64,000 bases of DNA from a bacterium (GTDB lineage: Bacteria; Zhuqueibacterota; Zhuqueibacteria; Residuimicrobiales; Residuimicrobiaceae). The notes under the pieces are model-generated. The model saw only the letters and a list, made by a program, of their open reading frames with translations. It searched no databases and was not told where the DNA came from. The stretch spans positions 29,691-93,690 of the forward strand of contig DAOQAG010000009.1 in assembly GCA_035353815.1 (NCBI GenBank), written 5' to 3'. A program made the translations under genes and the position numbers. Below are positions 26,726 through 52,304 of this stretch, piece by piece. Position 1 is the stretch's first letter; every line of letters starts with the position of its first letter.

Positions 26726-26726
26726 G

Positions 26727-29027: not shown

Positions 29028-29058
29028 GCTCCACTCCTTGGCTACAAGTCCGCACATC

Positions 29059-29316
29059 TCATTTTTTTCGCCATGCCGCCGCGGCGATCCAGCGCAGGCT
29101 GTGAAAGAGCAGGCGCAGCGCCGCCGCGATCAGATAGAGTACCAGCGCCAGGGCCAGAACGAATGGCAGCTGCGTGACCAGCTCGCCCCAACCCGCCTGG
29201 TATTTGACGATGGCATAGCCGTTGGCCAGCAGGGCGATCCCCAGGGAGATGATGCTGTACCTGATCTCCCGCGTGATCGCCGCGCCGGTGATGGTGATAT
29301 CCCTGATCTTAAACAT
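29059..29316 (-). CDS. 85-aa two-TM membrane protein, unknown function, translationally coupled to the upstream oxidoreductase
   Basis: The ATG at 29314-29316 overlaps the last codons and TAA of the Gfo/Idh/MocA gene (ATGTTTAA, 8-nt overlap). Sequence is MFKIRDITITGAAITREIRYSIISLGIALLANGYAIVKYQAGWGELVTQLPFVLALALVLYLIAAALRLLFHSLRWIAAAAWRKK. It has two clear hydrophobic spans and positive charges at both termini. No family recognised. Confidence 0.55.
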   Translation of the reverse strand: MFKIRDITITGAAITREIRYSIISLGIALLANGYAIVKYQAGWGELVTQLPFVLALALVLYLIAAALRLLFHSLRWIAAAAWRKK

Positions 29317-30571: not shown

Positions 30572-30580
30572 CGTCTCTGG

Positions 30581-31459: not shown

Positions 31460-31577
31460 GCCCTCCCCCCTGCTCGCCGCCGCCTTCCGGCCAAGCATCC
31501 GGCCTCAGCCGAGCCGAGCCGATCCAGAGTGGCAGCAGACCGCCACCGCGGCCTGTTTGCGTCCAGTCCGGCATCGC

Positions 31578-34424
31578 TCAGGAGGCGACAGGCGTGATGT
31601 TCAACGTGCCGCGCTGGCCCGGCTCAACCGGGATCAGCAGGCTGAGGGTGCCCCGGGCCAACTCCCGGCACTCCAGGGGCTGCCCGTTCCAGGTGGCCCG
31701 ATAGTGGCGCCCGGGATCGAGGCAGGCGACCACGGCGGTCGTACGCTTCCGGCCGTAAAATTTCAGAGTGGCTGTATAGGAGCGGTTGTCCGCGCCGAAG
31801 GCCTGGCTCTCCACCCAGCCGTCGAGGCCGCAGGTGAAGGTACCGGGGCGGAAATAGGCGCTGTACCAGAGCAGCACCGGCGTCGACAATCCGCCGAATT
31901 CATGCCACCCGGCGCCGCGTCCGGTCTCGATGAGAAAATGCTCCATGCAGTTGTACGAATTCTCCACCTCTTTCTTCCAGAGATCCAGGCCGGTGCGGGC
32001 GATCTGAAAGGCGAAATCGGCGCGGCCGAGATCGAGCATCGTTTTCCAGAAGAACCACTGGTGTGCGATCCACACGGTGCCGTTCCAGTAGCCGTCCATG
32101 CGGTAATAGGGCGCGGACTGGTCGACGGCCGAGAGGCCGATCGGCGACCAGAGGTGCTGTGGCGACTCGAGGCGCTCGAGCAGGAGCCGCTCCTGTTCGG
32201 GCGTGCACGCGCCCGCCACCAGCGGGTAGGCGCCATCCATGCCCATATCATAATTGACCCGCTCCTCATAGCGCATCTGCTGCACGGGCCGGCCCTGGGC
32301 ATCGTGCATGACATAGGCGAAATAGCCGCTTTCCGGGTCCCAGGCGTATTTTTGCAGCGCCGCGGTCAAGCGCTTGATGTCGGCTTCGTACTGGCGTACA
32401 TCCGCCTCGAGTCCCAGCTGCCGGGCGGCCATCTCGAGGATCCGGGCGGTGCGGATGACCTGGGCCGTGGTGATCACCGGGGTCACCCCCGCTTCCAGCT
32501 TGCGGTCATGAACGTATTTCTGGGGGGGATAATCGTCCCAGCCGCCCGAGTTGTAAAAGTAATCCCAGGTCTTGAGCAGATGCGATTTCATGGCGGCGGT
32601 GGTCGAACTGCCCAGGCGGCCGGCGAGAAATTCGTGATACTGTTTGAGGCGGGGATAGAAATAGCGCAGCATCTCCATCGACTGGCTGCGCTGCCACAAT
32701 TCGAGGAAGAGGTAATGCTGCACCGGCACCGGGGTGCCATGGTGGAGAAAGGCCGATTGGGCGCCCGGGGGGGTGGTATAGGTATTGAGGCACTCGATCG
32801 CGCGCCGCTCGTCGAGCTGCAGCAGCCCCATGCCGATGAAACCCGAATCCCAGGTATAGAGGCAGTCCCACCAGCGGCCCGGGGTGTTGTGGCGGATGTA
32901 CTGGCCCTGGGTGTAGACCGGATAGACGACATTGCAGAGGGTGGTGGCGCTCATGCGCATCTGGCTGAAAAGGTAGGGATCGCCTTCGCCGGGGAAATCG
33001 AGATCGACCACGTGGGCGCGCGCACGGGCGTAGATCTCTTCGCCCCGGGCCGCCGTGGCGCTGTACTGCCGCAGCTTCATCTCGACCTCCTGGCGCGTGC
33101 CGCAGCAGACCATGCCATATAGGACGCGCCGGCTCTGCGGCGTGAGGTTGACGGGGCGCAGAAAGACATTGGTATACTCTTCGTCGCCGTCGATCGTAAA
33201 CTCGGTGGGGACGTGGTCGTTGACCATGCGTTTAAAGTAGGTATCGATGTCCCGGCCGCGCCATTCGCGCACCTGGGACATGGGGAAATCCCACGCCAGG
33301 CCGTAATAGAGGGCGGTGTCCGCATATTTGAGGAGGAGCGACTGCGGCACCGGCCCTGCCAGGCGTTCCGGCCGGGATTGCCATTTTTTTTCGCCGAAGG
33401 TCAGGCCGCCCGCCTCCGCGGCGCTGAGCAGGGCGAAGCCGTCGAGGTCGATGGCGGAGCCACCGCGGGCCAGCAGCGTCAGCTCATGGCGGCCCGGCAC
33501 CAGGGAACCGAGGGGAACCCGGCACAGCTGCATGCCAGCGCCGCCTGCGAGGGCCACCTCGCGGTCGAGGAGGCCGCCAAGATGAAAGCGGCTGCTCGAA
33601 TCGGCGGCGAGGCGATAGCGCAGGACGAGGAGGGCGTCACTCAGGGGCGTCGTGGTCGTAAAAGCATAGGTGACGTGGTCGCCGGCCTCCGCGCCAAAGC
33701 CGGCGCCGAGCGCCGTGCCGTTGACAAAACCATGGTCGCGAATCTCGCCGCGGAACTTGCCGTCGTAGCCAAGATTGTCCTGCGGCCGGGGATGGGCGAA
33801 TTCCATCTCGCGATACGGCAGGGCATCGATCCACACGCCGGAAGGCGGCAGCTGGACGGTGGCCAGGAGGATCGGCGTGTCGGGGCTGTACTCCCGGATC
33901 GAGGGGAAATGCATCGAGGCGAGGAAATGGATGGCGAGGTTCTGCTTATCACCCGTGTTGTTGACACATTCGATCCGGACCAGCCGGGCTTGAGGATCGA
34001 TCTCGGAATAGGAGATGTCGGTATAGACCCGGTCCTGCCACTCCAGTTCATGGCGGAAGCTGAAATATTCGAACTGCGGCGAGGCCTCCCAGGGGTGATA
34101 ATCGGATTCAAAAAAGACGTTCGGCAGGGCCACCTTGCGGCGGTACAGACCCGGAAAGACGCCGACGTCGAAGCGCAATCCCTGCTGGGCATCCGGGATG
34201 TGCGACAGCCCGATATATTTTTTGGTATAGGGCCCCCAGGCTGGCAGGCTGAGGTCATGGGTCTGGTTCAGGGCCGCAAAATCGGCGGCTGTCCATGAGA
34301 AGGGCGCGGCGGCGGCGCAGCTCAGGGCCGCAAAATCGGCGGCTCTCCATGAGGTGGGCACAACGGCAGCGCAGCTCAGGGCCATCATCCAGAGGAGGAG
34401 GGGGAATTTGCGTGGAGCGGGCAT
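31578..34424 (-). CDS. large (alpha/alpha)6-barrel glycoside hydrolase, GH63-like / MGH1-like (family assignment tentative)
   Basis: ATG at 34424 with AAGGA upstream. Signal or lipoprotein-like N-terminus. The C-terminal half carries clan GH-G style motifs (TWDYFYNSGGWDDYPPQ, DMGMDGAYPL, WSPIGLSAVDQSAPYYRMDGYWNGTVWIAHQWFFW). The N-terminal half looks beta-sandwich-like. Confidence 0.6.
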   Translation of the reverse strand: MPAPRKFPLLLWMMALSCAAVVPTSWRAADFAALSCAAAAPFSWTAADFAALNQTHDLSLPAWGPYTKKYIGLSHIPDAQQGLRFDVGVFPGLYRRKVALPNVFFESDYHPWEASPQFEYFSFRHELEWQDRVYTDISYSEIDPQARLVRIECVNNTGDKQNLAIHFLASMHFPSIREYSPDTPILLATVQLPPSGVWIDALPYREMEFAHPRPQDNLGYDGKFRGEIRDHGFVNGTALGAGFGAEAGDHVTYAFTTTTPLSDALLVLRYRLAADSSSRFHLGGLLDREVALAGGAGMQLCRVPLGSLVPGRHELTLLARGGSAIDLDGFALLSAAEAGGLTFGEKKWQSRPERLAGPVPQSLLLKYADTALYYGLAWDFPMSQVREWRGRDIDTYFKRMVNDHVPTEFTIDGDEEYTNVFLRPVNLTPQSRRVLYGMVCCGTRQEVEMKLRQYSATAARGEEIYARARAHVVDLDFPGEGDPYLFSQMRMSATTLCNVVYPVYTQGQYIRHNTPGRWWDCLYTWDSGFIGMGLLQLDERRAIECLNTYTTPPGAQSAFLHHGTPVPVQHYLFLELWQRSQSMEMLRYFYPRLKQYHEFLAGRLGSSTTAAMKSHLLKTWDYFYNSGGWDDYPPQKYVHDRKLEAGVTPVITTAQVIRTARILEMAARQLGLEADVRQYEADIKRLTAALQKYAWDPESGYFAYVMHDAQGRPVQQMRYEERVNYDMGMDGAYPLVAGACTPEQERLLLERLESPQHLWSPIGLSAVDQSAPYYRMDGYWNGTVWIAHQWFFWKTMLDLGRADFAFQIARTGLDLWKKEVENSYNCMEHFLIETGRGAGWHEFGGLSTPVLLWYSAYFRPGTFTCGLDGWVESQAFGADNRSYTATLKFYGRKRTTAVVACLDPGRHYRATWNGQPLECRELARGTLSLLIPVEPGQRGTLNITPVAS
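34269..34383. repeat. 54-bp tandem duplication (2.1 copies) inside the 5-prime end of the GH63-like gene
   Basis: Units 34269-34322 and 34323-34376 share 47/54 identical positions by hand count, and a third unit starts CAGGGCC at 34377. They encode ALSCAAVVPTSWRAADFA / ALSCAAAAPFSWTAADFA / AL. Confidence 0.9.
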
Positions 34425-34492
34425 GTGGCATGTTCCTTTCTGGCCGCGCGGAGTACTCCGCTGGATCCGGGGTTCTGCAGAGGGCGGCTGGT

Positions 34493-36412
34493 CTAGTGCT
34501 CGGTCCGGGTCATGCTTGCGAAATGGAGGGTAAGGGCATGACCCTGATACTCGAAATGGATCTCTTCGGGCTGGCGCCGGGCGCGGACATAATCGCTTTC
34601 ATAGCGCGGATAGTTCAGGTCCCGGATCTGGCCGTCAACGCTGAATTCCCCTGCATAGGTCAAAGATAGTGTTTTTTTGCCGCAACTAAAAGTCAGTTTG
34701 TGCTTCTGCCAGCTCACCTCCGCTGCATGCATGCGGCGGCAGAATTCACTGAAGGGTTCCTCGGCTGCGCGGCCCATGACGCAGATCCAGTAGCATTCGC
34801 GGCCCGCCTGGATCCACTCGACCAGGCCGTTTTGACGCAGCGGCACAGCCGTAAAAAAGGCCAGCCAGGCTTGCCCGTGGCGGGCTAGCAGCAGGTTGCC
34901 CTCCTGCCGCACCTCCTCGAAGCGCGCGGCGGGCAGATAGAGATGGGTATAGGGAATCACGGGCCGCTGCAGCAGTCCGGACCGTTCCGGCAGCAGATAA
35001 ATCGACAGATTGATATTCTCTTCCTGGACGGAATGGGGCAGGCAGCCGTTCCCCACCCATGTGCTGGGCGGCGGGATGCCTGCCGCGCTCTCCCCCGGCA
35101 GGATCTGCGGATGATTGTGAAAGAGGGCCAGGTCCGGCGCCAGGGTGGCACCGAAGATATGTTCCTGATGGCCGAAGGTGCCCGGGTGATAGGCTTGCGT
35201 CGTATAGAGGCTATAGTCGGGCGTGCGATAGGTATAGGTATTGGCCCGCAGCAGAGCGGTGCCGTTGGTCTGCGGGTTCAGGTGCCGGCTCAGGACGGGG
35301 TTAAGATGAAAGAGCCGCAGCGCAGTAAAGTTGAGCCAGCGGAACGGGTATAAAAATTCGTTGGTGAAAAGCGCATTGCGCTCGACCCAGGCCAGAGAGT
35401 TGTCAATAACCTCGGGATTGGAAAAGGCCGCCATCCCCCATTGCATCATGATCTGCCGATCCTCCGCGCCGATCAGTCCCGCCGCAGCCAGCTCATCGAG
35501 ATCCAGCCCCTGGGAGGCTTTGATGATCCGCGGCACCGGGTCCCTGCCGATCTCAAGCAGGACCTGCGGCACCCGATAGTTCTCGAGATCGAAAAAGTTG
35601 ATATCCATTCCAGTGGCCGGGCCCTGGGGGGCGGCATCCGTGAAAAGCGAGCGGGTAATCCGGCTGGTGGCTACCGCGGTGGCGGTCTTGCCATTTTCAT
35701 AGGCGCGGCCGCTGCTGGTGACGAACTGGCCCTGCCAGGATTGCGAAGCCAGGTCATAGAGGAGCAGATCAAGGATCATCCGGCTCCTGGCGACGATCTC
35801 CTGATCATTGCAGAAATCGATCAGATTGCACAGGGGGGCGATATCCTGCACATAGTAGGTATTGGAAAAGTACTCGCTGAAGCCGTAGCGCCAGCGCAGG
35901 TCGAGCCAGGCCAGAATCCGTTTTCGGGCCCGGACCATGTGTTCGCTGTCGCTGAGATCGGCATTGCTGAAAAAGGTCTGCGAATAATATTGCCCGGCCA
36001 GGTACTCCGCCGCGGCGAAGAGGATCTGGTGGTTTTCGCTCCAGAAGCACATACCGTCCTGCCCCGGTTCGTCCATCCCGTAGCGGAAGGCGGTGAGGGA
36101 ACGCTTGATCTCCGCGTGCATCGCGGGCGTGAGCAGTGCGGAGTGCGTATAGAGAATCCGCAGCAGGGACTGCAGGCGAAAATCGGCGCAGTCGTAGCGG
36201 CGGTCGATATAGTGACAGATCGCCTGGATCTCCTCCAGGCTGACCGCCTGGCCGTGATCCAGGTTCCAGAGTACCTTGTTCTCGGGAGTAGCCGCCGGAG
36301 CGGCGGGCAGGGCGGGAATGATCGGCATGCGTTCATTACGGACAAATTCGCCAAGCGTATAGCAAGAGAGAGCGACGAGCACGAGGAGCAGGATATGGCG
36401 GATTGTCTTCAT
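34493..36412 (-). CDS. uncharacterised exported protein (639 aa); possibly a polysaccharide-lyase-like toroid + beta-sandwich enzyme
   Basis: ATG at 36412. N-terminal signal/anchor MKTIRHILLLVLVALSCYTLG. Composition looks like a real protein throughout (CFWSENHQILFAAAEYLAGQYY, WRYGFSEYFSNTYYVQD, TFGHQEHIFGATL). Sits between the T9SS protein and the GH63-like gene. I cannot place the family. Confidence 0.7.
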   Translation of the reverse strand: MKTIRHILLLVLVALSCYTLGEFVRNERMPIIPALPAAPAATPENKVLWNLDHGQAVSLEEIQAICHYIDRRYDCADFRLQSLLRILYTHSALLTPAMHAEIKRSLTAFRYGMDEPGQDGMCFWSENHQILFAAAEYLAGQYYSQTFFSNADLSDSEHMVRARKRILAWLDLRWRYGFSEYFSNTYYVQDIAPLCNLIDFCNDQEIVARSRMILDLLLYDLASQSWQGQFVTSSGRAYENGKTATAVATSRITRSLFTDAAPQGPATGMDINFFDLENYRVPQVLLEIGRDPVPRIIKASQGLDLDELAAAGLIGAEDRQIMMQWGMAAFSNPEVIDNSLAWVERNALFTNEFLYPFRWLNFTALRLFHLNPVLSRHLNPQTNGTALLRANTYTYRTPDYSLYTTQAYHPGTFGHQEHIFGATLAPDLALFHNHPQILPGESAAGIPPPSTWVGNGCLPHSVQEENINLSIYLLPERSGLLQRPVIPYTHLYLPAARFEEVRQEGNLLLARHGQAWLAFFTAVPLRQNGLVEWIQAGRECYWICVMGRAAEEPFSEFCRRMHAAEVSWQKHKLTFSCGKKTLSLTYAGEFSVDGQIRDLNYPRYESDYVRARRQPEEIHFEYQGHALTLHFASMTRTEH

Positions 36413-36488
36413 GGATTCAGGATACCGTTGGTTGAGTGGCGTGCCGTCAGGGACGCGAGCGCGGCCGCGAGGTGCCACCACCGTGGAG

Positions 36489-36523
36489 TAAAAAGAGAGG
36501 CGCCGCTCATGCAGCCGACGCCT
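36489..36523 (-). terminator. possible (partial) intrinsic terminator after the T9SS-tailed protein gene
   Basis: On the minus strand the sequence is AGGCGTC-12 nt loop-GGCGCCT (7-bp stem with one G-U) followed by CTCTTTTTAC. It lies 60-90 nt downstream of stop 36582 and 77 nt upstream of the next start. Confidence 0.4.
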
Positions 36524-36581
36524 GTCCAGGGACCATTACACGGGGTGATACCGGATACGTATTTACGATTAGGAAAATAAT

Positions 36582-38198
36582 TTATTTGATCAGCGCCATC
36601 TTTTTAACCATCCGGCTCCCGCTCTGCGACAGCTCATAGAAATAGGTGCCGGAGGGGAGATTGCGTCCGTTGAAAATCGCCTGATAACGGCCGGCCGGCT
36701 GGACGGTGTTGACCAGAGTCGCGACCTCGTGCCCGCTGATGTCATAGATCCTGAGCATGACCTTGCCACGGGCTTCGAGGGTGTAGTGGATGACCGTCAT
36801 CGGATTGAAGGGATTGGGGTAGTTCTGGCCGAGGCTGAATTGTTCCGGATTGACACCGTTCTGCTCGACGCCGGTGATCGTCGAATTCCAGTTGGTGTCG
36901 CCGACGGGCAGCCGGTCCGAACCGACAAACGCCGGATTGCTGGTCGCATAGGAGCAATCGAGGGAATCGGACCAGAAATCGCGGGTATGACGATCCATAT
37001 CATACTCCGCGGTGGTGCTCGCAGCGATCTCGATCGGATTGGCATAGTACCAGTTATAGAGCGCGTACATGAACTTGGGGGCATTCTTCAGGGTCACTTC
37101 AGCATTGACATACGCCTGGGCCGAATCGGCGCCCATCAGTCCGCGGATGCGCTTGCTCAGAACCGGAGCTTCGACCACACCGTGATTCGCCCACACATCC
37201 TTGATGGCCTGTTCGGTATAGAACACATTGTGGTGAATCTCAAATTTGGGGGTGATCCCCTCATTGGGCTCGTCGCTGATTTCATACATCATCGGGTTAG
37301 CAGCGGCATCGACTTCGCCGTGGAGATCGAATTCAGCCCGGCGCCACTGATCGGTCGTGCTGAAGCCGAAAGCCATCGGGTTGATAAAGAGGTTGTTGGT
37401 CATCTTGAGGCCGGCCGCGCCGATATCGCCGACGTGGAACATGCCGAAGGCGCCCAGCCAGTGCATGAAGGTGCAGTGATCGAATTCCATATACTGCACG
37501 AAATTCTGCTTCTTGCTGGCATCGCGGTGACGGATGACGCGGTCACAGCCGTTGATCAGGGTGCAGTTGCGCACGATCAGGCTGTCGGTGGCGCCATCGC
37601 GGAAATCAATAAAACGGCCGTTGCCGAGGTTGTCGGCGGAGACCTGGCCCATGTTGGCGATCACCGTATTGGTGACTTTGACCAGGCGGGCACCGCTGTT
37701 GGAACGGATGGTGACCTGTCCGCAGTTGTTGAGGATACAGCCGTCCACGACCAGGACCTTGCCCGGCGCTGCAGCGCGCAGGAGCTGTCCGCCCATGCGC
37801 ACCAGAGGATCGGGAACTCCGGTATCGGCATTGGGACCCATGCCATCAAAGTAGATGTTATACAGATAGCAGTCATTGCTGGCGTTGAGCAAACGGGCGC
37901 CCAGGCTGCCGTCGGCCTGAGGATAGGCCACGACGCGGGGCATGGAGCCGCTCCCCGTCTCAGCCTTCAGCACCAGGGGATAGCCGATATTCTCGATATA
38001 GCCCTGGACGAAGTAGGTGGCGCCACGCTGCAGGACGTAAACGGAATCGGCCCGCTTGCCGTTGCTGAGGGTATCCGCGTTGATCAGATTATTGATAAAG
38101 CCGGCATTGGGATCCAGCACCTTGTCCGCAAATGCCGGGGCTGCGACGATCGCCAACAACATCATGATAACCAGGATGTAGCTCATTCTCGATTTCAT
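36582..38198 (-). CDS. secreted parallel-beta-helix-like protein with T9SS type-A C-terminal sorting domain, copy 2
   Basis: ATG at 38198 with GGAGGA 6 nt upstream. Signal peptide MKSRMSYILVIMMLLAIVAAPAFA. Beta-helix-like repeats (VVDGCILNNCG, VTNTVIANMG, GRFIDFRDGATDSLIVRNCTLINGC, EFDHCTF, MTNNLFIN). CTD is GQNYPNPFNPMTVIHY...GTYFYELSQSGSRMVKKMALIK. Confidence 0.87.
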   Translation of the reverse strand: MKSRMSYILVIMMLLAIVAAPAFADKVLDPNAGFINNLINADTLSNGKRADSVYVLQRGATYFVQGYIENIGYPLVLKAETGSGSMPRVVAYPQADGSLGARLLNASNDCYLYNIYFDGMGPNADTGVPDPLVRMGGQLLRAAAPGKVLVVDGCILNNCGQVTIRSNSGARLVKVTNTVIANMGQVSADNLGNGRFIDFRDGATDSLIVRNCTLINGCDRVIRHRDASKKQNFVQYMEFDHCTFMHWLGAFGMFHVGDIGAAGLKMTNNLFINPMAFGFSTTDQWRRAEFDLHGEVDAAANPMMYEISDEPNEGITPKFEIHHNVFYTEQAIKDVWANHGVVEAPVLSKRIRGLMGADSAQAYVNAEVTLKNAPKFMYALYNWYYANPIEIAASTTAEYDMDRHTRDFWSDSLDCSYATSNPAFVGSDRLPVGDTNWNSTITGVEQNGVNPEQFSLGQNYPNPFNPMTVIHYTLEARGKVMLRIYDISGHEVATLVNTVQPAGRYQAIFNGRNLPSGTYFYELSQSGSRMVKKMALIK

Positions 38199-38317
38199 TA
38201 CGTTTCCTCCGATGAAAGATTCTCCTACCGTAGTTTTGCAGAACAAAGAACCGCTCGCGAGACGTTCACCTCCTTGGCTTGGCAGAATGCCGCCCCGGCA
38301 TCTCCGCAGTGTACGGG

Positions 38318-41239
38318 TTAAAAGGTCATGCGCAAGCCCAGATCTCCGGTCATGCCGTTGATCGAGCCGCCCATATCAAGATGACGAAACGATGCATAGT
38401 TGCCTTCAATGACGTTGGTCAGGTTATTGACATTCATAAAGACCGCAAGGTGGTTGGTGATCTGCTGCTTGAGCGAAATGTCCCAACGATTGAAGCTCTT
38501 CTGATACTGATCCAGACGCTCCGACTGGCTGATGTAGGAGAGATAGGGCCCCTGGAAATAGACCGAGACGCGTCCGGAAAAACCGCCGATATCATAGCCG
38601 ACCGCAAGATTGCCCATATAATTGGTCTGCCCGGTCAGCGGCCTCTTGGTAAAATAATAGACCGGGGTCTGCTTGGGCGGGAAGGTGGTGGTGATATCGA
38701 GTTTGAACCGCGGATAGATCGTCTCCGACCAGATGCGCGAATAATTGCCGTTGACGATGATATTCTTCAGCAGACCGGGGAGAAATCCGAGATGGGTCTG
38801 CACTTCGAGCTCATATCCCCAGACCTTGGTGTCGGAGGTATTGACCGGCTCGCTCAGGGTGTATTGATTGAACGGACCATATTTCATCGGCAGCCCGATG
38901 CTTTTGGCATGGCTGTTGCCGGTGACGCGCACATCGTAGAGCCAGTAGAACATATCGTCGATCTCTTTGTAAAAGCCGGCCAGCGTGAGCAATCCGTACC
39001 GGGTCGAATAAAAGGACATGTTGGCGTCGTAATTGCGGGAGATGGCGGTTTTCAATTTGGGATTACGCCGTTCGATCACCCCCTCCTGGCGGTCGATGTA
39101 CAGGGCCGGCAGCCGCATCTGGAAATCGGGCCGGGCCAGAGCGCTGGTCACCGCGAAACGGATATCCCACCATTTGAAAGGCCGGATCCGCAGGTGGGCG
39201 CTGGGCAGCCAGAAGCCGTTCCGGAAGGTGGCAGTGCTGTCGGTGATGATGCCATGTTGCGCTTCGAACTGGCCGACGATTTCAGGGGCATATTTGGCGG
39301 TATAGGAGTTGTTTTCCTCTTCATAGCGGACACCGGCGATCAGGGTGAGAAACTGGCGCCAGCTCAGTTTGGTCATCATATAGCTCGAAGTGACATTCTC
39401 CTCGACCGAGTATTTATAGCGGTTGCTCTCGAGCAGATAGTTATATTCTTCGCGCATGCCGTCGAGGCTGATGCCGTTCTTGTTGAAATTGTACCATTGC
39501 CGCACCCGATCGGCATCGATCAGGGGATAAAGCCGGTATTCGCCATGAATCATGCGCGAGGAATAGGGCGGTCCTGAGAGAAAGTCGGTGAGGAGGCCGG
39601 TGTAGGGCGAATCCTCCCAATAGGTGCCCGTCCAGTCCTTGAGGACCTTTTCGCCCTGGTCGTTGAGGGTGTAGGCCTGGGTCGTGCGCAGCCAGTAGGG
39701 CCCCATCCACATATCGGCATCGCGGTGGCGGTCCTTGTTGCGATATTTGACTCCCGCCTTGATAAAACCGGCCAGACTGGAACTGAGGTGGAAGGATTTT
39801 TCCAGGTCCAGCTTGGCGACCAGGTTCTGGTCGTCGTTGGCGCTCTGGGTAAAATAATCGCGATCCAGCCCGGCCTTGTTAAAATTGTTTTGGGCATACG
39901 GAATCAGATACTTGCCGGGCATGCGCAGGGTATCGCGGCTGCCCACCGTGCGCATCCCCGAAACCATCGTCGTGGGCTCGTAGAAGCGCATTTGATGTTC
40001 GAAGGGCATCTCGCTCTGAGTTTTGGCATAGGCCAGTGACCAGTCCAGATCGAAGCCAAGGAGATGGTTTTCGCCGAGCAGGGAGCTGTTCATGGTCTTG
40101 ATGGTCATGTCGCGCACCGTCGCCTCGTAGCGCACGTCCGCACCGACCGGGTAGGTGCGGCCATAATCATTGGTATTGCGCGTGGTCTGGCTGTAGACGT
40201 TGATCTGTTTGATGTTGCCGCCGTCGGGGGTGTTATAGTCGAACGAGATTTCACCGCCGCTGCGTTTGCGGGTCTCCTCGATGTAACTGACCTTGAGGTT
40301 GGCGATGCGGTAATCCAGATTGGGGGGAATTTCCCAGGAGTCGATGAAGGTCTCGCTGCTGCGGTCCCGCTGCGAGGCGGAGGCCATGGCGCGCAGGCCG
40401 AGCTTGTTGCCGAAAAATCGGTTGCTGTAGCGGCCGCTAAAGTCGTATTGCTTGAAGGAGTTTTTCAGGTCGTTATAGCTCCCCACGGCATCGATCTGGA
40501 AGGCCTGGCCGGGCTCGGCCTTTCCGGTGATGAGATTCACCGTACCGGCGATGGCATCGGCATCCTTGTCCGGGGTGAGGGCCTTGTAGACCTCGATCCC
40601 CGCCAGGGCATTCTGCGACATCATGCTCAGATCGACGTCGCGGTTTTCGCTGTTGGTGGCCGGAATTTCGATGCCGTTGAGCGTGATCGTGGCGAATTTG
40701 GCATCGAGGCCGCGGATCAGGACTTTTTGCGCCTCGCCGCCGGAGCGCTGCACCGCGACACCGGGGAGCCGGCCGACGGCTTCGGCGGCGTTGGCATCGG
40801 GCAATTCCTGAATGCGTTCCTGCGACACCACATTGACGATCTGATCCGAGGCGATCTGCTGGTTGATCGCGGCCATCTGGCCTTCTCGCTGCGCCGTGAC
40901 CGTGACCTCTTTCATCGAGACCATCGCGTAATGCATCTGGATGTTCAGATTCAGTTTCTGCGCTTTGCTGAGGGAGATGGTCTTTTCGAAGCGGTCATAA
41001 CCGACGTAGGTGGCGGTCAGGACGAAGGAGCCCTCCGGGGCATTGGTAATACTGTACTTGCCATCCAGATCAGAGATGGTGCCGATGGCCGTCCCCTTGA
41101 GAAAGATATTGGCGCCCGGCAGCACTGTGCCGGTCGAACCATCCACCACTTTGCCCTGAATCTGACCGGCCCAGGCGGCCGCCTGTGTGATGAGCAGGAT
41201 CAGGACGGTGAGGAGAGCAGGAAGTTTTTTCAAGGTCAT
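38318..41239 (-). CDS. TonB-dependent receptor with CarboxypepD_reg-like domain, copy 2
   Basis: ATG at 41239 with AAGGAG 6 nt upstream; the track start 41242 is GTG. Signal peptide. GKVVDGSTGTVLPGANIFLKGTAIGTISDLDGKY. Plug motifs (ANAAEAVGRLPGVAVQRSGGEA, VLIRGLDAKF, AGIEVYKALTPDKDADAIAGTVNL). C-terminal ...GDLGLRMTF. Confidence 0.9.
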   Translation of the reverse strand: MTLKKLPALLTVLILLITQAAAWAGQIQGKVVDGSTGTVLPGANIFLKGTAIGTISDLDGKYSITNAPEGSFVLTATYVGYDRFEKTISLSKAQKLNLNIQMHYAMVSMKEVTVTAQREGQMAAINQQIASDQIVNVVSQERIQELPDANAAEAVGRLPGVAVQRSGGEAQKVLIRGLDAKFATITLNGIEIPATNSENRDVDLSMMSQNALAGIEVYKALTPDKDADAIAGTVNLITGKAEPGQAFQIDAVGSYNDLKNSFKQYDFSGRYSNRFFGNKLGLRAMASASQRDRSSETFIDSWEIPPNLDYRIANLKVSYIEETRKRSGGEISFDYNTPDGGNIKQINVYSQTTRNTNDYGRTYPVGADVRYEATVRDMTIKTMNSSLLGENHLLGFDLDWSLAYAKTQSEMPFEHQMRFYEPTTMVSGMRTVGSRDTLRMPGKYLIPYAQNNFNKAGLDRDYFTQSANDDQNLVAKLDLEKSFHLSSSLAGFIKAGVKYRNKDRHRDADMWMGPYWLRTTQAYTLNDQGEKVLKDWTGTYWEDSPYTGLLTDFLSGPPYSSRMIHGEYRLYPLIDADRVRQWYNFNKNGISLDGMREEYNYLLESNRYKYSVEENVTSSYMMTKLSWRQFLTLIAGVRYEEENNSYTAKYAPEIVGQFEAQHGIITDSTATFRNGFWLPSAHLRIRPFKWWDIRFAVTSALARPDFQMRLPALYIDRQEGVIERRNPKLKTAISRNYDANMSFYSTRYGLLTLAGFYKEIDDMFYWLYDVRVTGNSHAKSIGLPMKYGPFNQYTLSEPVNTSDTKVWGYELEVQTHLGFLPGLLKNIIVNGNYSRIWSETIYPRFKLDITTTFPPKQTPVYYFTKRPLTGQTNYMGNLAVGYDIGGFSGRVSVYFQGPYLSYISQSERLDQYQKSFNRWDISLKQQITNHLAVFMNVNNLTNVIEGNYASFRHLDMGGSINGMTGDLGLRMTF

Positions 41240-41573: not shown

Positions 41574-42851
41574 ATGAACAAGAACCACCTGAATATCCAG
41601 AAAGAGCTGGAAAAAAGCCTGTTCCAGAGCGAGGCCATACGCAACTCGCGGAACACCCAGCTTCTGTTGACCTATCTGCTGCAGTGCCAGGATAAAGGCA
41701 TCGTTCCGAAAGAGACGATGATCGCCCGCGAGGTCTTTGGCAAAGACCAGCATTTTAATCCGGGTGAAGACCCTCTGGTCCGGGTTCATATTCACAATCT
41801 GCGTAAAAAGCTGGAAGAGTATTACCGGGAGGAAGGGCGGAAAGACCGGTACCGGCTGGAGATTCCCAAGGGGCAGTATGTCATCCACATCATCGATCAG
41901 ACCGAGAGCAAGCAGATCGGTACCTGGATCCGCGCGCACACCGGATGGCTGCAGGTTTATCCCCTGTTGTTGGTGCTGATGACCTGCATCGCTTCAGGAC
42001 TGCTGATCTACGCCGTAAGCCTGCATAAGGAAGTGAAGAAATACCGCTGTGTCGATATCGATGATGCGATCTGGGGTGATTTTCTCAAGTCCCGCAACGA
42101 GACCATGATCGTCTGCGGCGATCACTTTTTCTACAATATCAACATCAACTACCAGAATCGTTCGGTCCATATCCGCGACACCTGGATCAACTCCGCGGAA
42201 GACATGAAATATCTGATCTTTCCGGACAACACCACCACCGCCCAGCCTTCCGATCAAACCTATTTTCCCTTCGGCACGGTGTGGTCGCTTCCGAGCATCG
42301 TCAAGCTGCTGAATTCTTCGCCGCGGCAGATCGTTCTGCGCAGTTCATCGCAGTTGACTCCCAATGTTATCGAAGAACAGAATGTGGTCTATATCGGCAA
42401 TATCAAATCCCTCGGGATCCTGCAGCATTACATCGAGCAGGCCCATCTCGCCTATGATATCCGCCAGCGCATCCTGTACCACTTCTCCCCCGCTGACACC
42501 CTGCGCTTCAACGCCGAAGCCAACGAGGATGTCTATCACACCGATTACGCCTTCATCATCAAGTATGAAGGTCCGCGCGGCAATGCCATCCTGATCACGG
42601 CCGGATTTTTCACCATCGGGCTCAAGGAAGCCTGCCGTTACCTCACCGAACCGGAACTCCTGCCGCAGCTCGAGCAGCTGCTCATCACCTCCTGCGGCCG
42701 TGTCCCGAAAAACTTTCTGGTGGTGCTCAAGGTTTCCGGAATCCGGCAAGCGATCATCGAATCCAGATTCGCCCTGGTCGAAGCGCTGACGCCGGTCAAC
42801 TCGCCGGCGCCGCACTCCGCCGCCAATCCGCTTCTTAGTCCAGTTCCTTGA
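41574..42851 (+). CDS. membrane-bound one-component regulator: N-terminal OmpR/CadC-type winged helix, one TM, about 270-aa extracytoplasmic domain of unknown family
   Basis: The N-terminus fits the Trans_reg_C pattern ([75 protein letters not shown]). The TM is [26 protein letters not shown]. The rest is not recognised. The upstream in-frame region is closed by TGA at 41442-41444 and has no other ATG/GTG. Visibly lower GC than its neighbours. Confidence 0.75.
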
Positions 42852-44223
42852 TCTTGATGTTTCTAAAAAAGACCTGGCAGCCATGGTCCTGGAGCAGGAT
42901 GTGGCCTTCCGCCGCTTCACCAAAGTTCGGCCAGATGGCATATTTGCTGCGGGCGACCAGGGCGCGCCACATCTGGGTGCCGCGCTGATATTCGACCTGC
43001 TTGATGCCGTTGAGATAGTGGCACACCTTCTGGCCGCGGACCACGATCCGGGCCCGGTTCCAGTCGTATTTGTTGACGCGCTTGGCGGTATTTTCGTCGG
43101 GGGCATAGAGCCGAGCCTCGGCCGGGATCAGATCGTAGAGCGAAGCGAGAGTCCGGTTGCCGGCGGTACCCAGTTTGGCATCGGGATGGAGATCATCGTC
43201 CAGGATCTGGAACTCGCAGCCGATGGCCGATCCCGCGCCCTTGTTGGTCTGGGTATCGACGAAATACTTGATGCCGCTGTTGGCCCCGGCCGTCATCCGG
43301 AAATCGGCCTCGAGCTCAAAATCGGCATATTGCTTCACCGTGACGATATCGCCGCCGTTGCGCGCCTCTTCGCCGCCGCTTTCGGCTACTATGAGCATGC
43401 CGTTCTCGATGCTCCAACCGCCTTCCGGGAAGCGGTCAAGCTTGGCGCCCCGCCAGCCGGCCGTGGTCTTGCCATCCCAAAGCAGCTGCCAGCCCTCGGC
43501 GATCTCGCGCGGTGTGAGCTGGTTGGTGAGATAACTGCTCTGCGGAATGGCGTTGGTGACCGGCGTACGCAGCGCGGCCAGATTCTCCGTCAGGATGCGA
43601 AGGTTGCGCCAGGCGATGGTCTTGCCCGCCAGGCTCGAATCGTTGCCGATGCTATGCACCTGGAGGGCGATGAAGCCGGCGGGCGTCAGGTCATCGACGA
43701 TATCGGCGGTGGGAAAGCCGTTGAGCCAGACGCGGATCGAGGTGCCAACCGCTTCGACACGAAACTGGTTCCATTCCCCTGGCTTGAAGGCCGCCTTGGC
43801 GGCGGGATTGCATTCGAGGTTGTAAAGCCAGCCGCGACGGGCTTCATCATAGAGGCCGCCGCTCCAGGCACGCGGCGAGGGATCGAGCTCGACCTGGAGA
43901 CCATGGACGCGGCCCTTTTGCACCTCCGGCAGGCTCAGACTGCGAATCTGCACCCCGGAGTTCAGTCCGGCATCGATACGGCATTCATACTCGAGAATGA
44001 AATCACCATAGAGGGTGCGGGTGGCCAGAAAGGTGTTGGGGGTATTCAGTTTGCTGATGCCGACAATGGCGCCATCGCGCACCACAAATGGCGCATCGCC
44101 ATTGAGCACCCGCCACTCCTTCAGGTTCTTGCCATTGAACAGGTTCACCCAGAGATCTTTCCCCGCCGCAGCGGAGGCCAGCGCAAGAAGAGACATGGCT
44201 ATCACCCAAAATTTGCTTCTCAT
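42835..44223 (-). CDS. secreted protein with two tandem DUF1080 (3-keto-disaccharide hydrolase-like, concanavalin-fold) domains
   Basis: Signal peptide [21 protein letters not shown]. The DUF1080 pattern occurs twice. First: [22 protein letters not shown]...[24 protein letters not shown]...IALQVH. Second: [24 protein letters not shown]...[23 protein letters not shown]...[20 protein letters not shown]. Confidence 0.85.
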
Positions 44224-44271: not shown

Positions 44272-45594
44272 TCAATCGATCGACAGCTCCCACCCCTTGG
44301 CATACTCGCGTTTGCACAAGCCCCGCGCCTTTTTATTGCCGCGGACCTGCCCGGTCGCCGGATCGAGATCGAGGGTCTCGTTCAGTTTCCAGGCGATATT
44401 CGCGAGCTGCAGGATCGTCACGCTCTTGTTGCCCTCAGCGATCGGTGAATTCAGCGGCGTCCCCTTGCGGATGGCGTCGATGAAATTACGAAAATGGATG
44501 TTGGTCAGTTCATCACGGCTGAGCAGGTCCTGAGAAGTGCTGGCCGTCGGCAGCCGAAATTGCTCGAGCAGCGTGTCATTGTGCGAATAGACCTCGTAGC
44601 TGTCGCGGTCCAGCACCACCGTGCCCTCGGTGCCATGGATCGCTGCACCACGGTCACGATTGTAATACTTCTTGCCCTGGCAGCTCAGGCCCTCCCAGGT
44701 GATCATGGCGTCGGGATATTCAAAGCTGGTGACGAGGGTATCATAAAATTCCCAGTCGTCCTTAAAATGGTAGCGGCCGCCGCTGGCGGTGACGCGCAGG
44801 GGGAGATCGACCCCCAGAGCCCAGCGGCAGATATCCACCTCATGGGTGCCGTTGTTGAGGGTTTCGCCGGTGCCCCATTGCCAGAACCAGTGCCAGTTGT
44901 AGGGGTGAATATTGTCCTTGTACGGCCGCCGCGGCGCCGGCCCCTGCCACAACTCCCAATTCAGAGAGGCGGGTACCGGCACCACCTTGCCAACGCCGAT
45001 CGATTTGCGGACATTGCTGTACCAGGCCTTGCCAAAATAGGGCCGGCCGATCAGACCCGCATGGATCCTGGCGATGATCTCCTGGCTGTGCGCCGAGGAA
45101 CGCTGCTGGTTGCCCATCTGCACCAGCTTGCCGTATTTCTTCTGCGCCGCGACAAGGAGCTCGCCTTCATGGGGATTATGGCTGCAGGGCTTTTCGACAT
45201 AAACATGTTTCCCGGCTTGCAGTCCCATGATGGCCATCGGGGCGTGCCAGTGCTCCGGGGTGGCGATGGTGATGGCATCGACATCGCGGGACTCGAGGAT
45301 ACGGCGAAAGTCCTCGACCCGGGCGGGGGCGGCGCCAGTGGCTTGCTCCGCCGCCGCGGCGAATTTATCCAGCTCCACGGCGTCGACATCGCAGACATGG
45401 GTGACCGCGGCGTTGTCGCCGAAGCGCACGCCGTCGAGATGGGCATAGGCCCGGCCGTGCAGCCCGATGATGGCAAAATTAAGGCGGTCGTTGGCCCCGA
45501 TGATCCGGCTGTAGCTTTTAGCGCTCGCTCCGAAGGCCAGGCCGGCAGCCCCCATGGCGGAAAGCTTGAGGAAATCCCTGCGTGACTGTTCCAT
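44272..45594 (-). CDS. Tat-exported Gfo/Idh/MocA-family oxidoreductase (second, divergent copy)
   Basis: Twin-arginine signal MEQSRRDFLKLSAMGAAGLAFGASA. Rossmann motif FAIIGLHGRAYAH. EKPCSHN motif. ATG at 45594 with GAGG upstream. Confidence 0.87.
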   Translation of the reverse strand: MEQSRRDFLKLSAMGAAGLAFGASAKSYSRIIGANDRLNFAIIGLHGRAYAHLDGVRFGDNAAVTHVCDVDAVELDKFAAAAEQATGAAPARVEDFRRILESRDVDAITIATPEHWHAPMAIMGLQAGKHVYVEKPCSHNPHEGELLVAAQKKYGKLVQMGNQQRSSAHSQEIIARIHAGLIGRPYFGKAWYSNVRKSIGVGKVVPVPASLNWELWQGPAPRRPYKDNIHPYNWHWFWQWGTGETLNNGTHEVDICRWALGVDLPLRVTASGGRYHFKDDWEFYDTLVTSFEYPDAMITWEGLSCQGKKYYNRDRGAAIHGTEGTVVLDRDSYEVYSHNDTLLEQFRLPTASTSQDLLSRDELTNIHFRNFIDAIRKGTPLNSPIAEGNKSVTILQLANIAWKLNETLDLDPATGQVRGNKKARGLCKREYAKGWELSID

Positions 45595-45714: not shown

Positions 45715-48462
45715 TCAGGGCCGCGGCCAATCCCACTCCAGCTGATACGTTCCCGATCCCAGGGTGACCCGGACAACGCCCTCCTGCTCTTCCGCCGAGA
45801 GCACCCCCTCGGCCGTGCGCAGAGGACGGCGGCCCTCGGTAACGGCTGCCAGTACAGCGCGCGGCAGTGTCGCCAGGGCGGTGGTATTGGGCGGCACGCT
45901 CAGGGAGAGGTGCATCCGTCCCTGGCTGATCTCCCAGCCGCAGGCCACCGTTCCATAAAGCGAGTTGAGTTCGGCGCGGGCATGCGTCAATCCGCCGCCC
46001 GGATGGGGCTGGAAGAGAATATGCTTGTATCCCGGCTGCGCCGGATCGATCTCAATGCCGGCGACCCACCGGTAGAGCCAGTCGCCGATGGCGCCATAGG
46101 CGTAGTGATTGAAGGAATTCATGCCGGGATCCTGGAAGGAGCCGTTCCGCTTGATGCCATCCCAGCGCTCCCAGATGGTGGTGGCGCCGCGGGTGACCGG
46201 ATAGAGCCAGGAGGGGTACTCCTTGCGATTGAGGAGCATAAAGGCTTCATCCGGATAGCCGAAATCGCTGAGGACGGGACAGATCAGCGGCGCGCCGACA
46301 AAGCCGGTGGTGATGTGGCCGAAGCGGCGTACATCCTCCGCCAGCCGTCTGGCCGCGGCCGGCCGCTGCTCCGGCGGCAGGAGATCGAAGGCCAGGGCGA
46401 GGCAGTACGCGGTCTGGGTATTGGAGGCCAGCCGGCCGTTGGCGGTGACGAATTCCCGGTTAAAGGCCGCGGTGGCCTTCTCCCTGATCCGGGCCAGGGT
46501 TTCAGCTTCCTCTACCTTGCCCAGCAGCCGGGCGGCGCGCTCGGTCACTGCCGTAGAACGGATGAAATAGGCCTGGCAGACGAGATCCTTGTCGGTGGTG
46601 GCGCCGGGATAATCGGAGCGGGTCGTGGCGAAGGCGAGCCAGTCGCCAAAGGTGTAATCGCGGTTCCAGAGATAGCTCTCCCCGGCGCGCGCTGTCATAT
46701 AATCGACCCAGGCCCTCATGCTGGGATATTGCTGTTCGAGGATATGCAGATCGCCGTAACAGAGATAGACGGTCCAGGGGACGATGACCGCGGCGTCGGC
46801 CCAGGCTGCGGCGGCCACATTGGCGGTGGGATTCTGCTTGTCGAGGACATTGGGGATCACATGGGGAACCGCGCCGCTGGGCTTTTGGTCCAGCGCCAGA
46901 TCCTGGAGCCATTTGGTGTAGAACGCGGCGATCTCGCCGTTGAAGCAGGCGGTGCGGGCGAAGACCTGGGCATCGCCGGTCCAGCCGAGGCGCTCATTGC
47001 GCTGCGGGCAATCGGTGGGCACATCGACGAAATTGCCCTTCTGGCTCCACTGGATGTTATGCTGCAGTTGGTTGATCAGGGAATCCGAACAGGTAAAGTT
47101 GCCGGCAGGGGCATAATCGGAATGGATGACTATGCCGGTCACCATGTCGGGGCGCAATTCTCCGGGGCAGCCCTCGACGTGGAGATAACGAAAGCCGTGG
47201 AAGGTGAAGCGTGGTTCCCAGATCTCTTCACCGCGGCCGTTGAGGATGTATTCATCGCGCTGCTGGGCATCGCGCAGATTGTCGAGATAGACATTGCCGG
47301 CCTGGTCGAGCACCTCAAAATGGGTCAAGCGGATGCGCTGGCCGCTGGCGCCGGTGGTTTTAAGGCGCACCCAGCCGGTAAAGATTTGGCCAAAATCGGC
47401 GACGACCTCCCCCTTGGGGGTGGTGAAGATGCGCTGGGGGCGGATTTCGCCGATACGGCGCACCGGCAACCCCGCCGGCGCGACCAGGTGGACCGTGGCG
47501 GCGGGCAGAACCCGGACTCCGGACCACCCGGTATCGTCATACCCGGGCGAACTCCATCCCTTCTTTTCCAGCCGGCTGTCATAGCGCTCGCCGTTATAAA
47601 TGTCCGAGGCGAGCAAGGGCCCGGTCGAAGAGCGCCATTTGTCGTCGGTGGTGATCCATTCGCTGCTGCCATCCGCATAGAGGACATGGATCTGCGCCAG
47701 CAGGGCCAGGGTCTTGCCATAGGTATTGCGCTGCCCGTTGAAGGCCAGGTTGCCGCGGTACCAGCCATCGCCGAGGAGGACGCCGGCGGCATTGGCGCCG
47801 GGCTTGAGCATGGCCGTCACGTCCCAGGTCTGATACTGCAGGCGGTGATCGAAGGAGGTCCACCCCGGCGTGAGGACCTGGTCGCCGACCTTGGCGCCAT
47901 TCAGTTCCAGTTCGTAGAGCCCACGGCTGGTCACATAGGCGCGCGCGGCCACAATGCCATTTTTAAGGAGGAATGCACGGCGGAGCATGGGACAGGGCAT
48001 CGATTGGGTGGAATCCTCGGCCAGATCAGGCTCGATCCAGGCGGCCTTCCAGTCCGATGGCTCCAGTACTCCCATCTCCCAGCAGGCGACGCTGCTCCAG
48101 GGGGATGGCCGGCCCTTCTGGTCCCAAATGCGGACCTGCCAGCAGCAGCGTATCCCCGAGGTCAGGGGCGCACCGGCATAGGGAATGTGGATCGAGGCCG
48201 CCGTGGATACTTTGCCGGAATCCCAGAGCAGCGGCGCGCCTTTTTTCAGGGCAGCAGGATCCGCGGCGACCCGGATTTGATAGGCGCTTTGCAGCGTGCC
48301 GCGGCCGGCTGCGGCTATTTTCCAGCTCAGACGCGGCTGCCGGATATCCAGACCGATAGGATCGGTCTTGTATTCGGTCCGCAGGTCGGTCACCGTCACC
48401 GCAGCTCGGGCCAAGAGCGGCACTACCGCGAGAAGCAGCCATAGCAGGGGGATATTCTTCAT
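45715..48462 (-). CDS. GH78 alpha-L-rhamnosidase
   Basis: ATG at 48462 with GGAG 8 nt upstream. Signal peptide MKNIPLLWLLLAVVPLLARA. Typical bacterial rhamnosidase N-terminus (VTDLRTEYKTDPIGLDIRQPRLSWK...SAYQIRVA) and (alpha/alpha)6 region (DCPQRNERLGWTGDAQVF). Confidence 0.9.
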   Translation of the reverse strand: MKNIPLLWLLLAVVPLLARAAVTVTDLRTEYKTDPIGLDIRQPRLSWKIAAAGRGTLQSAYQIRVAADPAALKKGAPLLWDSGKVSTAASIHIPYAGAPLTSGIRCCWQVRIWDQKGRPSPWSSVACWEMGVLEPSDWKAAWIEPDLAEDSTQSMPCPMLRRAFLLKNGIVAARAYVTSRGLYELELNGAKVGDQVLTPGWTSFDHRLQYQTWDVTAMLKPGANAAGVLLGDGWYRGNLAFNGQRNTYGKTLALLAQIHVLYADGSSEWITTDDKWRSSTGPLLASDIYNGERYDSRLEKKGWSSPGYDDTGWSGVRVLPAATVHLVAPAGLPVRRIGEIRPQRIFTTPKGEVVADFGQIFTGWVRLKTTGASGQRIRLTHFEVLDQAGNVYLDNLRDAQQRDEYILNGRGEEIWEPRFTFHGFRYLHVEGCPGELRPDMVTGIVIHSDYAPAGNFTCSDSLINQLQHNIQWSQKGNFVDVPTDCPQRNERLGWTGDAQVFARTACFNGEIAAFYTKWLQDLALDQKPSGAVPHVIPNVLDKQNPTANVAAAAWADAAVIVPWTVYLCYGDLHILEQQYPSMRAWVDYMTARAGESYLWNRDYTFGDWLAFATTRSDYPGATTDKDLVCQAYFIRSTAVTERAARLLGKVEEAETLARIREKATAAFNREFVTANGRLASNTQTAYCLALAFDLLPPEQRPAAARRLAEDVRRFGHITTGFVGAPLICPVLSDFGYPDEAFMLLNRKEYPSWLYPVTRGATTIWERWDGIKRNGSFQDPGMNSFNHYAYGAIGDWLYRWVAGIEIDPAQPGYKHILFQPHPGGGLTHARAELNSLYGTVACGWEISQGRMHLSLSVPPNTTALATLPRAVLAAVTEGRRPLRTAEGVLSAEEQEGVVRVTLGSGTYQLEWDWPRP

Positions 48463-48541
48463 CGCCAACTCCATTCTGGGGGAAAATCGTTTACACGTGG
48501 GGCAAACAGGCAGCATTCAGGGCAAAATGGTCTAATTGGGT

Positions 48542-52241: not shown

Positions 52242-52304
52242 AGGCACGCTAATGATACAAGGAAATCCTTATTTTCCGCTCCCCCTATCCCCAAGGATGC
52301 TGTG

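Follow-up and report, generated by a model that had tools for sequence, protein, structure and literature searches.

A 64,000-nucleotide stretch of contig DAOQAG010000009.1 (assembly GCA_035353815.1; the window, numbered from its first letter) carries on its reverse strand a gene for a TonB-dependent receptor (receptor 1, 38318..41239, 973 amino acids) and, directly 3' of it, a gene for a protein with a type IX secretion system (T9SS) C-terminal sorting domain (CTD) (partner 1, 36582..38198, 538 amino acids). In many relatives, receptor and partner genes of these two kinds form a unit that is conserved, holds in both directions and diverges jointly. We suggest, with a probability of about 50%, that the partner is a T9SS-delivered glycan-capture protein resembling a surface glycan-binding protein (SGBP), and that it makes up with the receptor a two-part outer-membrane unit for the import of nutrients, most likely glycans. 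The original prediction, made from the letters of the window, had proposed that a T9SS-anchored beta-helix protein may take the surface capture or first-cut role beside a SusD-independent receptor. A T9SS cargo with a beta-helix beside a non-SusC receptor is indeed what we found; 'SusD-less' did not hold as a trait of the module, and the pair does not always lie in a cluster of genes for carbohydrate-active enzymes (CAZymes).

Receptor 1 comprises a signal peptide, a CarboxypepD_reg-like N-terminal extension (approximately residues 27-105), a TonB-box-like motif (EVTVTAQ, approximately residues 111-117), a plug and a barrel. The extension, plug and barrel that had been read from the translation were all recovered in Pfam searches (CarbopepD_reg_2, 83 bits; Plug, 60 bits; TonB_dep_Rec_b-barrel, 99 bits). 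By its NCBIfam assignment the receptor is not a SusC. Receptor 1 and its paralogue in the window, receptor 2 (2566..5463, reverse strand, 965 amino acids), belong to TIGR01782 (TonB-Xanth-Caul; 372.9 and 392.9 bits respectively, cut-off 310; profile positions 3-868 of 868) and not to the SusC/RagA family TIGR04056, for which their scores are 73.6 and 80.3 bits (cut-off 368). The TIGR04056 match is confined to the N-terminal ~150-165 residues (in receptor 1 residues 27-192, the extension and the start of the plug). The AlphaFold2 model of receptor 1 (predicted local distance difference test, pLDDT, of 86) has the plug-in-barrel form of a classical transporter. Foldseek matched it best to PhuR, HasR (with its hemophore), PfeA, TbpA (with TbpB) and XusA of Bacteroides thetaiotaomicron (with the lipoprotein XusB), and no SusC homologue was found among the top 50. 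Receptor 1 is a SusC-style N-terminal extension joined to a non-SusC barrel. Since a TIGR01782-type receptor needs no SusD, the absence of SusD beside it is expected rather than remarkable.

The spacer between the two genes (38199..38317, 119 nt) contains the GGAGG motif of partner 1 (38206..38210, 7 nt 5' of the ATG). No terminator-like site was called in the spacer by a terminator scan, which is consistent with co-transcription of receptor 1 and partner 1. The partner begins with a signal peptide of the signal peptidase I type (residues 1-24, 38127..38198, AFA/D cleavage in the translation); because the N-terminus, MKSRMSYILVIMMLLAIVAAPAFA followed after the cleavage site by DK, contains no cysteine, the protein is not a lipoprotein. 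There follow an N-domain (residues 25-438, 36885..38126), a disordered linker (residues 439-454, 36837..36884, pLDDT < 50) and the T9SS type-A CTD (residues 455-538, 36585..36836), with the stop codon at 36582..36584. The CTD exceeds the cut-offs of both hidden Markov models (HMMs) for such tails, TIGR04183 (35.0 bits, cut-off 23) and PF18962 Por_Secre_tail (34.1 bits, gathering cut-off (GA) 27). The AlphaFold2 model of the partner, based on an alignment of 43 family members (mean pLDDT 85), consists of a right-handed parallel beta-helix (approximately residues 26-280), helices (residues 284-412), the disordered linker and a terminal beta-sandwich (residues 456-536); the signal-peptide helix (residues 2-18) has low pLDDT. 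Foldseek matches the sandwich to known T9SS CTDs, those of RemA in the translocon (8gl6_D) and of mirolase (8qb1). These models and scores support the view that partner 1 is a true type-A cargo of the T9SS whose core is a beta-helix, and the signal peptide, the separate GGAGG, the T9SS tail and the beta-helix-like core of the original prediction were all upheld. No T9SS machinery genes were found within the 64-kb window. Related genomes are rich in CTD proteins (139 non-family CTD open reading frames (ORFs) in the loci that we fetched), and CAZymes of Melioribacter roseus bear Por domains (PMC3534657).

The pairing of the two genes was followed through a few dozen fetched loci (designated by L numbers), which were scanned with the N-domain HMM, the CTD HMM and the receptors; adjacency was scored when a receptor ORF on the same strand ended no more than ~160 nt upstream. 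A scan of a genome collection took the generic CTD motif NYPNPFNP as its seed. Most of the CTD proteins retrieved were unrelated, family members being limited to L005-L007, L068 and L074; the rest served as a negative control. A metagenome scan with a five-sequence N-domain alignment contributed 6 loci. Adjacency was found for 18 of 19 evaluable family members (13 of 14 distinct ones), compared with 1 of 97 non-family CTD proteins in genomes of like kinds (Fisher p = 6e-15). The lone exception in the family is a Calditrichia ORF (L074). Five diverse partner homologues all had a CarboxypepD_reg receptor immediately 5' of them. A reverse test gave the same picture: five receptor homologues at 41-43% identity, drawn from a receptor search without using the partner in the choice and including Draconibacterium, KSB1 and a Bacteroidota metagenome-assembled genome (MAG), were each followed, within ~40-90 nt, by a protein that carries the N-domain (E 1e-119 to 1e-234) as well as a CTD. 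The pairing, which had been proposed from the window, is thus borne out in its relatives and in both directions.

The two genes have also diverged together. Across 17 distinct pairs, the pairwise identities of partners and of receptors are correlated with r = 0.96 (Pearson; Mantel p ~2e-4), and the pairing persists down to 25% partner identity, the named lineages being Ignavibacteria, KSB1 and Draconibacterium (Bacteroidia). The second two-gene unit that had been recognized in the window, at 648..5463, was confirmed as a relative of the first. Partner 2 (648..2240, reverse strand, 530 amino acids) is paralogous to partner 1 and shares its layout; the two are 26% identical by BLASTP (E 4e-35), the motif quoted in the original prediction lying within the alignment, and the receptors are 33% identical (BLASTP E 1e-160). 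In the pairwise comparison of the 17 pairs the corresponding identities are 24% and 33%. Partner 2 scores 31.6 bits with TIGR04183, above the cut-off, 26.5 bits with PF18962 (0.5 below GA), 37.5 bits with FlgD_ig and E 1e-118 with the N-domain profile. Pair 1 of the window is nearer to the pairs of L097, L099 and L100, whose hosts are probably Bacteroidia, than to pair 2. Judged by these identities, pairs 1 and 2 are old paralogues that diverged as units. For a further 14 partner and receptor clusters the longest contigs are of equal length, a soft sign of co-location.

Two side observations concern single loci of this survey. The only non-family CTD protein that lies directly 3' of a TonB-dependent receptor (L043 245-6267; 1047 amino acids, in a MAG labelled Chitinophagaceae) may be a very distant family member or an analogous partner. 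In L096 (3757-6883) two gene calls (325 and 701 amino acids) cover the receptor 5' of the partner P0115, which may reflect a frameshift or an assembly error.

As originally noted, the 64 kb hold no recognizable SusD. None of the ORFs of at least 150 amino acids matched the SusD/RagB models of Pfam or NCBIfam, and a SusD hidden among the orphan ORFs was rejected, as these gave no SusD match even at E <= 5. What held for the window and its close relatives failed for the module as a whole: in three distant relatives, one of them a Draconibacterium, the gene order is FecR-SusC-SusD-receptor-partner (L097 1040-11810, L099 1039-11848, L100 722-11311). Each of these loci has two transporters with two kinds of partner; the TIGR01782-like receptor is 41-43% identical to receptor 1, and among the three an STN match on SusC was seen in L100 only. 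Because these relatives place the pair directly after SusC/SusD, the module can stand alone or be added to a SusC/SusD system.

The CAZymes that flank the pairs vary from locus to locus. They include enzymes of glycoside hydrolase (GH) families GH92, GH63, GH28 and GH78 with rhamnose catabolism in the window, GH2, GH30 and GH51 in Melioribacter, sulfatases with GH88, GH3 and GH28 with a carbohydrate esterase of family CE8 and UxaE, and GH67. The regulators of other pairs are a hybrid two-component system (window pair 2 and L098) or an extracytoplasmic function (ECF) sigma factor with FecR (L091).

The N-domain ends in a conserved motif, ...YxxxxxxxxGxxxxPVGDxNW. When a profile of the N-domain alone was run against 1.84 billion representative proteins, clustered at 50% identity, it retrieved 475 clusters at E <= 1e-30 and 866 at E <= 1e-10. 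A CTD terminates 119 of the 150 best representatives, the remainder being mostly fragments, and 3 of 146 have lipobox-like N-termini; a word-indexed search with the N-domain alone returned no CTD-less or lipoprotein relatives. The partner homologues are all ~510-600 amino acids long, bear as their fullest name 'T9SS type A sorting domain-containing protein' and come from Ignavibacteria and Bacteroidota MAGs, including MROS_0982 of M. roseus (25% identity). The window itself has a GC content of 61%, and its best relatives are likewise Ignavibacteria and Bacteroidota MAGs at 50-70% identity. All 43 aligned family members match Por_Secre_tail (PF18962), 11 of the 43 match DUF4957 (PF16318) weakly (E <= 0.01, best 4e-5) and 7 of the 43 match Beta_helix weakly; in partner 1 the Beta_helix match is 18 bits, below threshold. 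On these scores a remote homology between the N-domain and DUF4957 is plausible. The N-domain also occurs in tandem two-domain proteins from Ignavibacteria-like metagenomes and probable Bacteroidia, in a fusion with Laminin_G_3 and in copies within ~3000-residue proteins. Tandem duplicates, or single copies in giant proteins of 2900-3600 residues, were seen in L087 (4596-7554), L088, L089, L097 (9041-11807), L099 (9028-11845), P0264, P0273, P0276, P0291 and P0300.

On successive rungs of the modelled helix lies a cluster of charged residues (D198, R200, D205, R220, R223 and H241) that is kept in 86-96% of 129 diverse representatives, whatever their locus context. It is present in both copies of L089, the only tandem protein tabulated for both. 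The cluster is absent in the Melioribacter subclade and half missing in partner 2 of the window, and the receptor pairing is kept in both. Because subclades without the cluster keep the pairing, it is not a docking surface or an active site common to the whole family, and the idea that it serves as the receptor-docking surface is weakened.

We propose the following model. The receptor would act as a classical TIGR01782-type TonB-dependent transporter with a SusC-like N-terminal extension. The partner would be exported by Sec and then by the T9SS, with removal of its CTD, and would probably stay attached to the cell surface rather than be released, T9SS anchoring thereby taking the place of the lipid anchor of SusD and SGBPs. 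Its beta-helix would bind polymer in the manner of BT1026 and BT1030, beta-helix SGBPs from the rhamnogalacturonan-II (RG-II) polysaccharide utilization locus (PUL) of B. thetaiotaomicron that are reported to bind RG-II and homogalacturonan with Ka ~2-5 x 10^5 M-1 (bioRxiv 10.64898/2026.03.13.711244). The polymer would then be handed to the cognate receptor, presumably through direct physical contact. Expression may be controlled by a divergent membrane-bound winged-helix regulator for pair 1 and by a hybrid two-component system for pair 2.

Several observations weigh against a capture role. The sole strong full-length PDB match of the N-domain in Foldseek is a polysaccharide lyase (PL), the PL6 alginate lyase BcAlyPL6 (7dmk; E 2e-6, TMq 0.43, 13% identity). 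The conservation of the charged cluster, as seen in the alignments, looks more like that of an active site, or of a site for one common ligand, than like that of substrate-specific binding sites. DUF4957, the family through which the partners may be linked to a reported binder, scores only 17.2 and 19.5 bits in partners 1 and 2, below its gathering score of 30.8. A few pairs (L001, L091) lie outside any CAZyme cluster, so that the substrate need not always be a glycan, and some T9SS type-A cargo is released instead of anchored. The first two points would suit a partner that is itself a T9SS-exported, polysaccharide-cleaving enzyme from a new beta-helix lyase or hydrolase family, making the first cut at the surface while the receptor imports the oligosaccharides and binding is incidental. 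The weaker Foldseek matches, to a PL9 rhamnogalacturonan lyase and a PL3 pectate lyase (phage tailspikes were also among them), would fit as well, as would L094 and L096, where GH88, which acts on lyase products, is present and no lyase is annotated in the visible stretch; enzymes are numerous among T9SS cargoes (PMC3534657). We rate such an enzyme second in probability to the capture role. No PL, GH or pectate-lyase model of Pfam or NCBIfam matches the partner proteins, and a PDB sequence profile search with the family gave nothing significant (best E = 0.11). The charged cluster is lost in whole or in part where the pairing is not. Loci with GH92 or with GH2, GH30 and GH51 suggest neutral glycans, which a lyase could not cut, and we count them for binding over cutting. 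Strict adjacency and co-divergence with a transporter are not normal for PUL enzymes and count for capture because they are typical of physically coupled partners; tandem duplication and fusion to the lectin-like Laminin_G_3 are commoner in binding modules. The varied CAZymes around the pairs point to a generic accessory, and the weak likeness to DUF4957 in 11 of the 43 members links the family to BT1026, a reported glycan binder that RefSeq annotates as DUF4957.

The same coupling could also be read in other ways. The partner might be released after removal of its CTD and serve as a soluble scavenger, a 'glycanophore' that docks transiently on the receptor as the hemophore HasA does on HasR. 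HasR ranks high in the structural comparison of the receptor, type-A CTD cargo can be soluble in some Bacteroidota, and adjacency with co-divergence would suit a specific docking partner. A diffusible polymer carrier of ~45 kDa would be costly, however, and cell-associated activity is reported as the rule for Melioribacter (PMC3534657); we regard a released scavenger as improbable. We give similarly little weight to the possibility that the genes are merely co-regulated neighbours without direct functional coupling, or that the unit imports something other than glycans. Such an explanation would account for the pairs found beside genes for amino-acid dehydrogenase, ribosomal, rotamase or lipase proteins (L001, L091, L096), and TIGR01782-type receptors do act alone in Proteobacteria. 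It fits poorly with an adjacency that holds both ways (13/14 and 5/5) and across such sequence distances, with a co-divergence that extends to old paralogues within one genome and is hard to explain without coupling, and with the CAZymes present in most loci of readable context. The capture reading has a precedent in the receptor fold, as the closest structural relatives of the receptor include transporters with a dedicated extracellular partner (HasR-HasA, TbpA-TbpB, XusA-XusB).

The module shares features with several known systems. As for the Bacteroides beta-helix SGBPs (BT1026, BT1030 and the predicted BT4112), a beta-helix gene lies beside a TonB-dependent transporter in a glycan locus; BT1026 adjoins the 'TonB-dependent receptor' BT1025 (PMC10434189). 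The window resembles the RG-II PUL of B. thetaiotaomicron in its genes of RG-II type (GH78, GH28-like and a GH140-like apiosidase domain). BT1026 and BT1030 accompany a canonical SusC/SusD, with BT1026 upstream of susC, whereas the window partner lies downstream of a non-SusC receptor with no SusD in the window. The partner of the window also differs in having a signal peptidase I signal and a T9SS CTD; BT1026 and BT1030, which the preprint calls SGBPs, we take from Bacteroides biology to be lipid-anchored. With SusC/SusD (RagA/RagB) the module has in common the order of transporter gene and extracellular-partner gene, duplication and divergence as a unit, a position at the head of CAZyme loci under hybrid two-component or ECF/anti-sigma control, and a receptor with a CarboxypepD_reg-like extension. 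It differs in its TIGR01782-type barrel, which is nearer to PhuR, HasR and PfeA, and in a partner made of a beta-helix and a T9SS CTD, SusD being a helical, TPR-like lipoprotein.

Glycan uptake independent of SusD is established for the carbohydrate utilization loci with TonB-dependent transporters (CUT loci) and the TIGR01782 carbohydrate receptors of Xanthomonas, Caulobacter and marine Gammaproteobacteria, which lie in CAZyme loci. The window receptors belong to the same HMM subfamily; to our knowledge those of the CUT loci have no CarboxypepD_reg extension and no dedicated adjacent T9SS partner, and those phyla lack a T9SS. The module also resembles HasR-HasA, TbpA-TbpB and XusA-XusB, where a specific protein, either secreted or on the surface, supplies a classical 22-strand transporter. 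Those systems carry heme, iron or siderophores, and their partners have unrelated folds and are exported by the type I secretion system or as lipoproteins. The PL6 lyase BcAlyPL6 is like the N-domain in fold and unlike it in sequence, with no family-level match, and the locus context of the partner argues for an accessory role rather than for a substrate-specific lyase. IhtA/IhtB of Porphyromonas gingivalis was dropped as a precedent for a receptor with a T9SS cargo, as IhtB is described in reviews as a lipoprotein, with no statement that the T9SS exports it.

In full-text literature searches we found no account of a beta-helix protein exported by the T9SS as the partner of a TonB-dependent receptor. 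SusCDE and CAZymes with Por tags appear in the genome paper of M. roseus, which does not mention this pair (PMC3534657). The components and the logic are already known; what is new is the T9SS delivery, the non-SusC receptor, an N-domain family without a name and the breadth of the conserved pairing. More tentatively, and with rather less confidence than in the capture role itself, we raise the possibility that the receptor and a T9SS-anchored beta-helix protein form a stable outer-membrane complex. This would be a third independent route to a capture subunit, beside lipoproteins (SusD, TbpB, XusB) and secreted hemophores, used widely in the Fibrobacterota-Chlorobiota-Bacteroidota (FCB) group (Ignavibacteria, KSB1, Calditrichia and some Bacteroidia) by a new, unannotated family of several hundred 50%-identity clusters or more.

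PUL prediction relies on the susC/susD tandem, as does most thinking on how the FCB group takes up glycans, and so misses the receptor and beta-helix module. If the proposal is true, the module would explain selfish-style polymer uptake in lineages with few SusD genes (Ignavibacteria, KSB1, Calditrichia), and the T9SS would serve nutrient import directly, beyond the export of enzymes. It would also provide a two-gene marker for glycan loci in metagenomes, namely a TIGR01782-type receptor with a CarboxypepD_reg extension followed by an N-domain/CTD protein, and would give a name to a domain family now labelled only by its sorting domain. M. roseus is culturable and has the pair (MROS_0982 and the receptor upstream), which makes the hypothesis directly testable.

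Candidate regulators adjoin both pairs of the window. Divergent from receptor 1, an ORF on the forward strand (41574..42851) encodes 425 amino acids with an N-terminal winged helix (Trans_reg_C; weak, E 1.5e-5, below GA), one transmembrane segment and a C-terminal domain without a family. Homologues of ~410-430 amino acids, also divergent from the receptor, were found in L001 (3447-4718, E 1e-132), L005, L006 and L094 (2613-3836); because they hold the same position, pair 1 belongs to a three-gene module. From its sequence the protein is a candidate one-component sensor for the module, with a weak winged helix of the OmpR/CadC type. Directly upstream of pair 2 is the hybrid two-component system (5697..9848, reverse strand), in which Pfam recognizes Reg_prop repeats, HisKA, HATPase, a receiver and an AraC helix-turn-helix.

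Some 55-90 nt past the stop codon of partner 1 lies the predicted terminator-like hairpin (36492..36527, reverse strand; GGCGUCGGCUGCAUGAGCGGCGCC then UCUCUUUUU). Hairpin and U-run are present as described, though modest (fold z-score -0.35). The counts of terminator and promoter sites in the region did not exceed those of shuffled sequences, so that operon structure is inferred. The co-directional array of glycan-degrading and transport genes that follows (13185..36481, reverse strand) proved somewhat larger than originally described, with at least 13 genes where 11 had been counted. From 36481 downwards these encode an orphan lipoprotein-like ORF, a GH63-like protein, ApbE, a GFO oxidoreductase, GH92, a GH28-like protein, two further GH92 enzymes, MFS, ROK, RhaB, RhaA and RhaT. 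None of the array proteins bears a T9SS CTD; within the window only partners 1 and 2 do.

Five sizeable ORFs of the glycan locus match no Pfam or NCBIfam model at E <= 5: 34493..36481 (-), 48657..50411 (-), 52269..53360 (-), 59149..60057 (+) and 60076..62463 (-). Two of the five have signal peptides, and all may be undescribed CAZymes or binding proteins. The ORF at 34493..36481 (likely start 36409) adjoins partner 1 and has a lipobox-like LVALSC; it is not kept beside the pair in other loci. Elsewhere in the window, a two-domain 3-keto-disaccharide-hydrolase protein adjoins a GFO/IDH/MocA oxidoreductase with a twin-arginine translocation (TAT) signal (42835..44223 and 44272..45594, both on the reverse strand), an arrangement that points to oxidative (3-keto) cleavage of glycosides in the periplasm. 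Another GFO oxidoreductase stands with ApbE at 29309..31498. RhaT, RhaA and RhaB, a GH78 rhamnosidase, GH28-like proteins and a GH140-like 'Apiosidase' domain are encoded in 13185..17172, 45715..48516, 50454..51872 and 53388..55001. Through these rhamnose, GH78, GH28 and GH140-like genes the locus resembles one for complex pectin of an RG-II-like kind; it also has three GH92 enzymes and the GH63-like enzyme.

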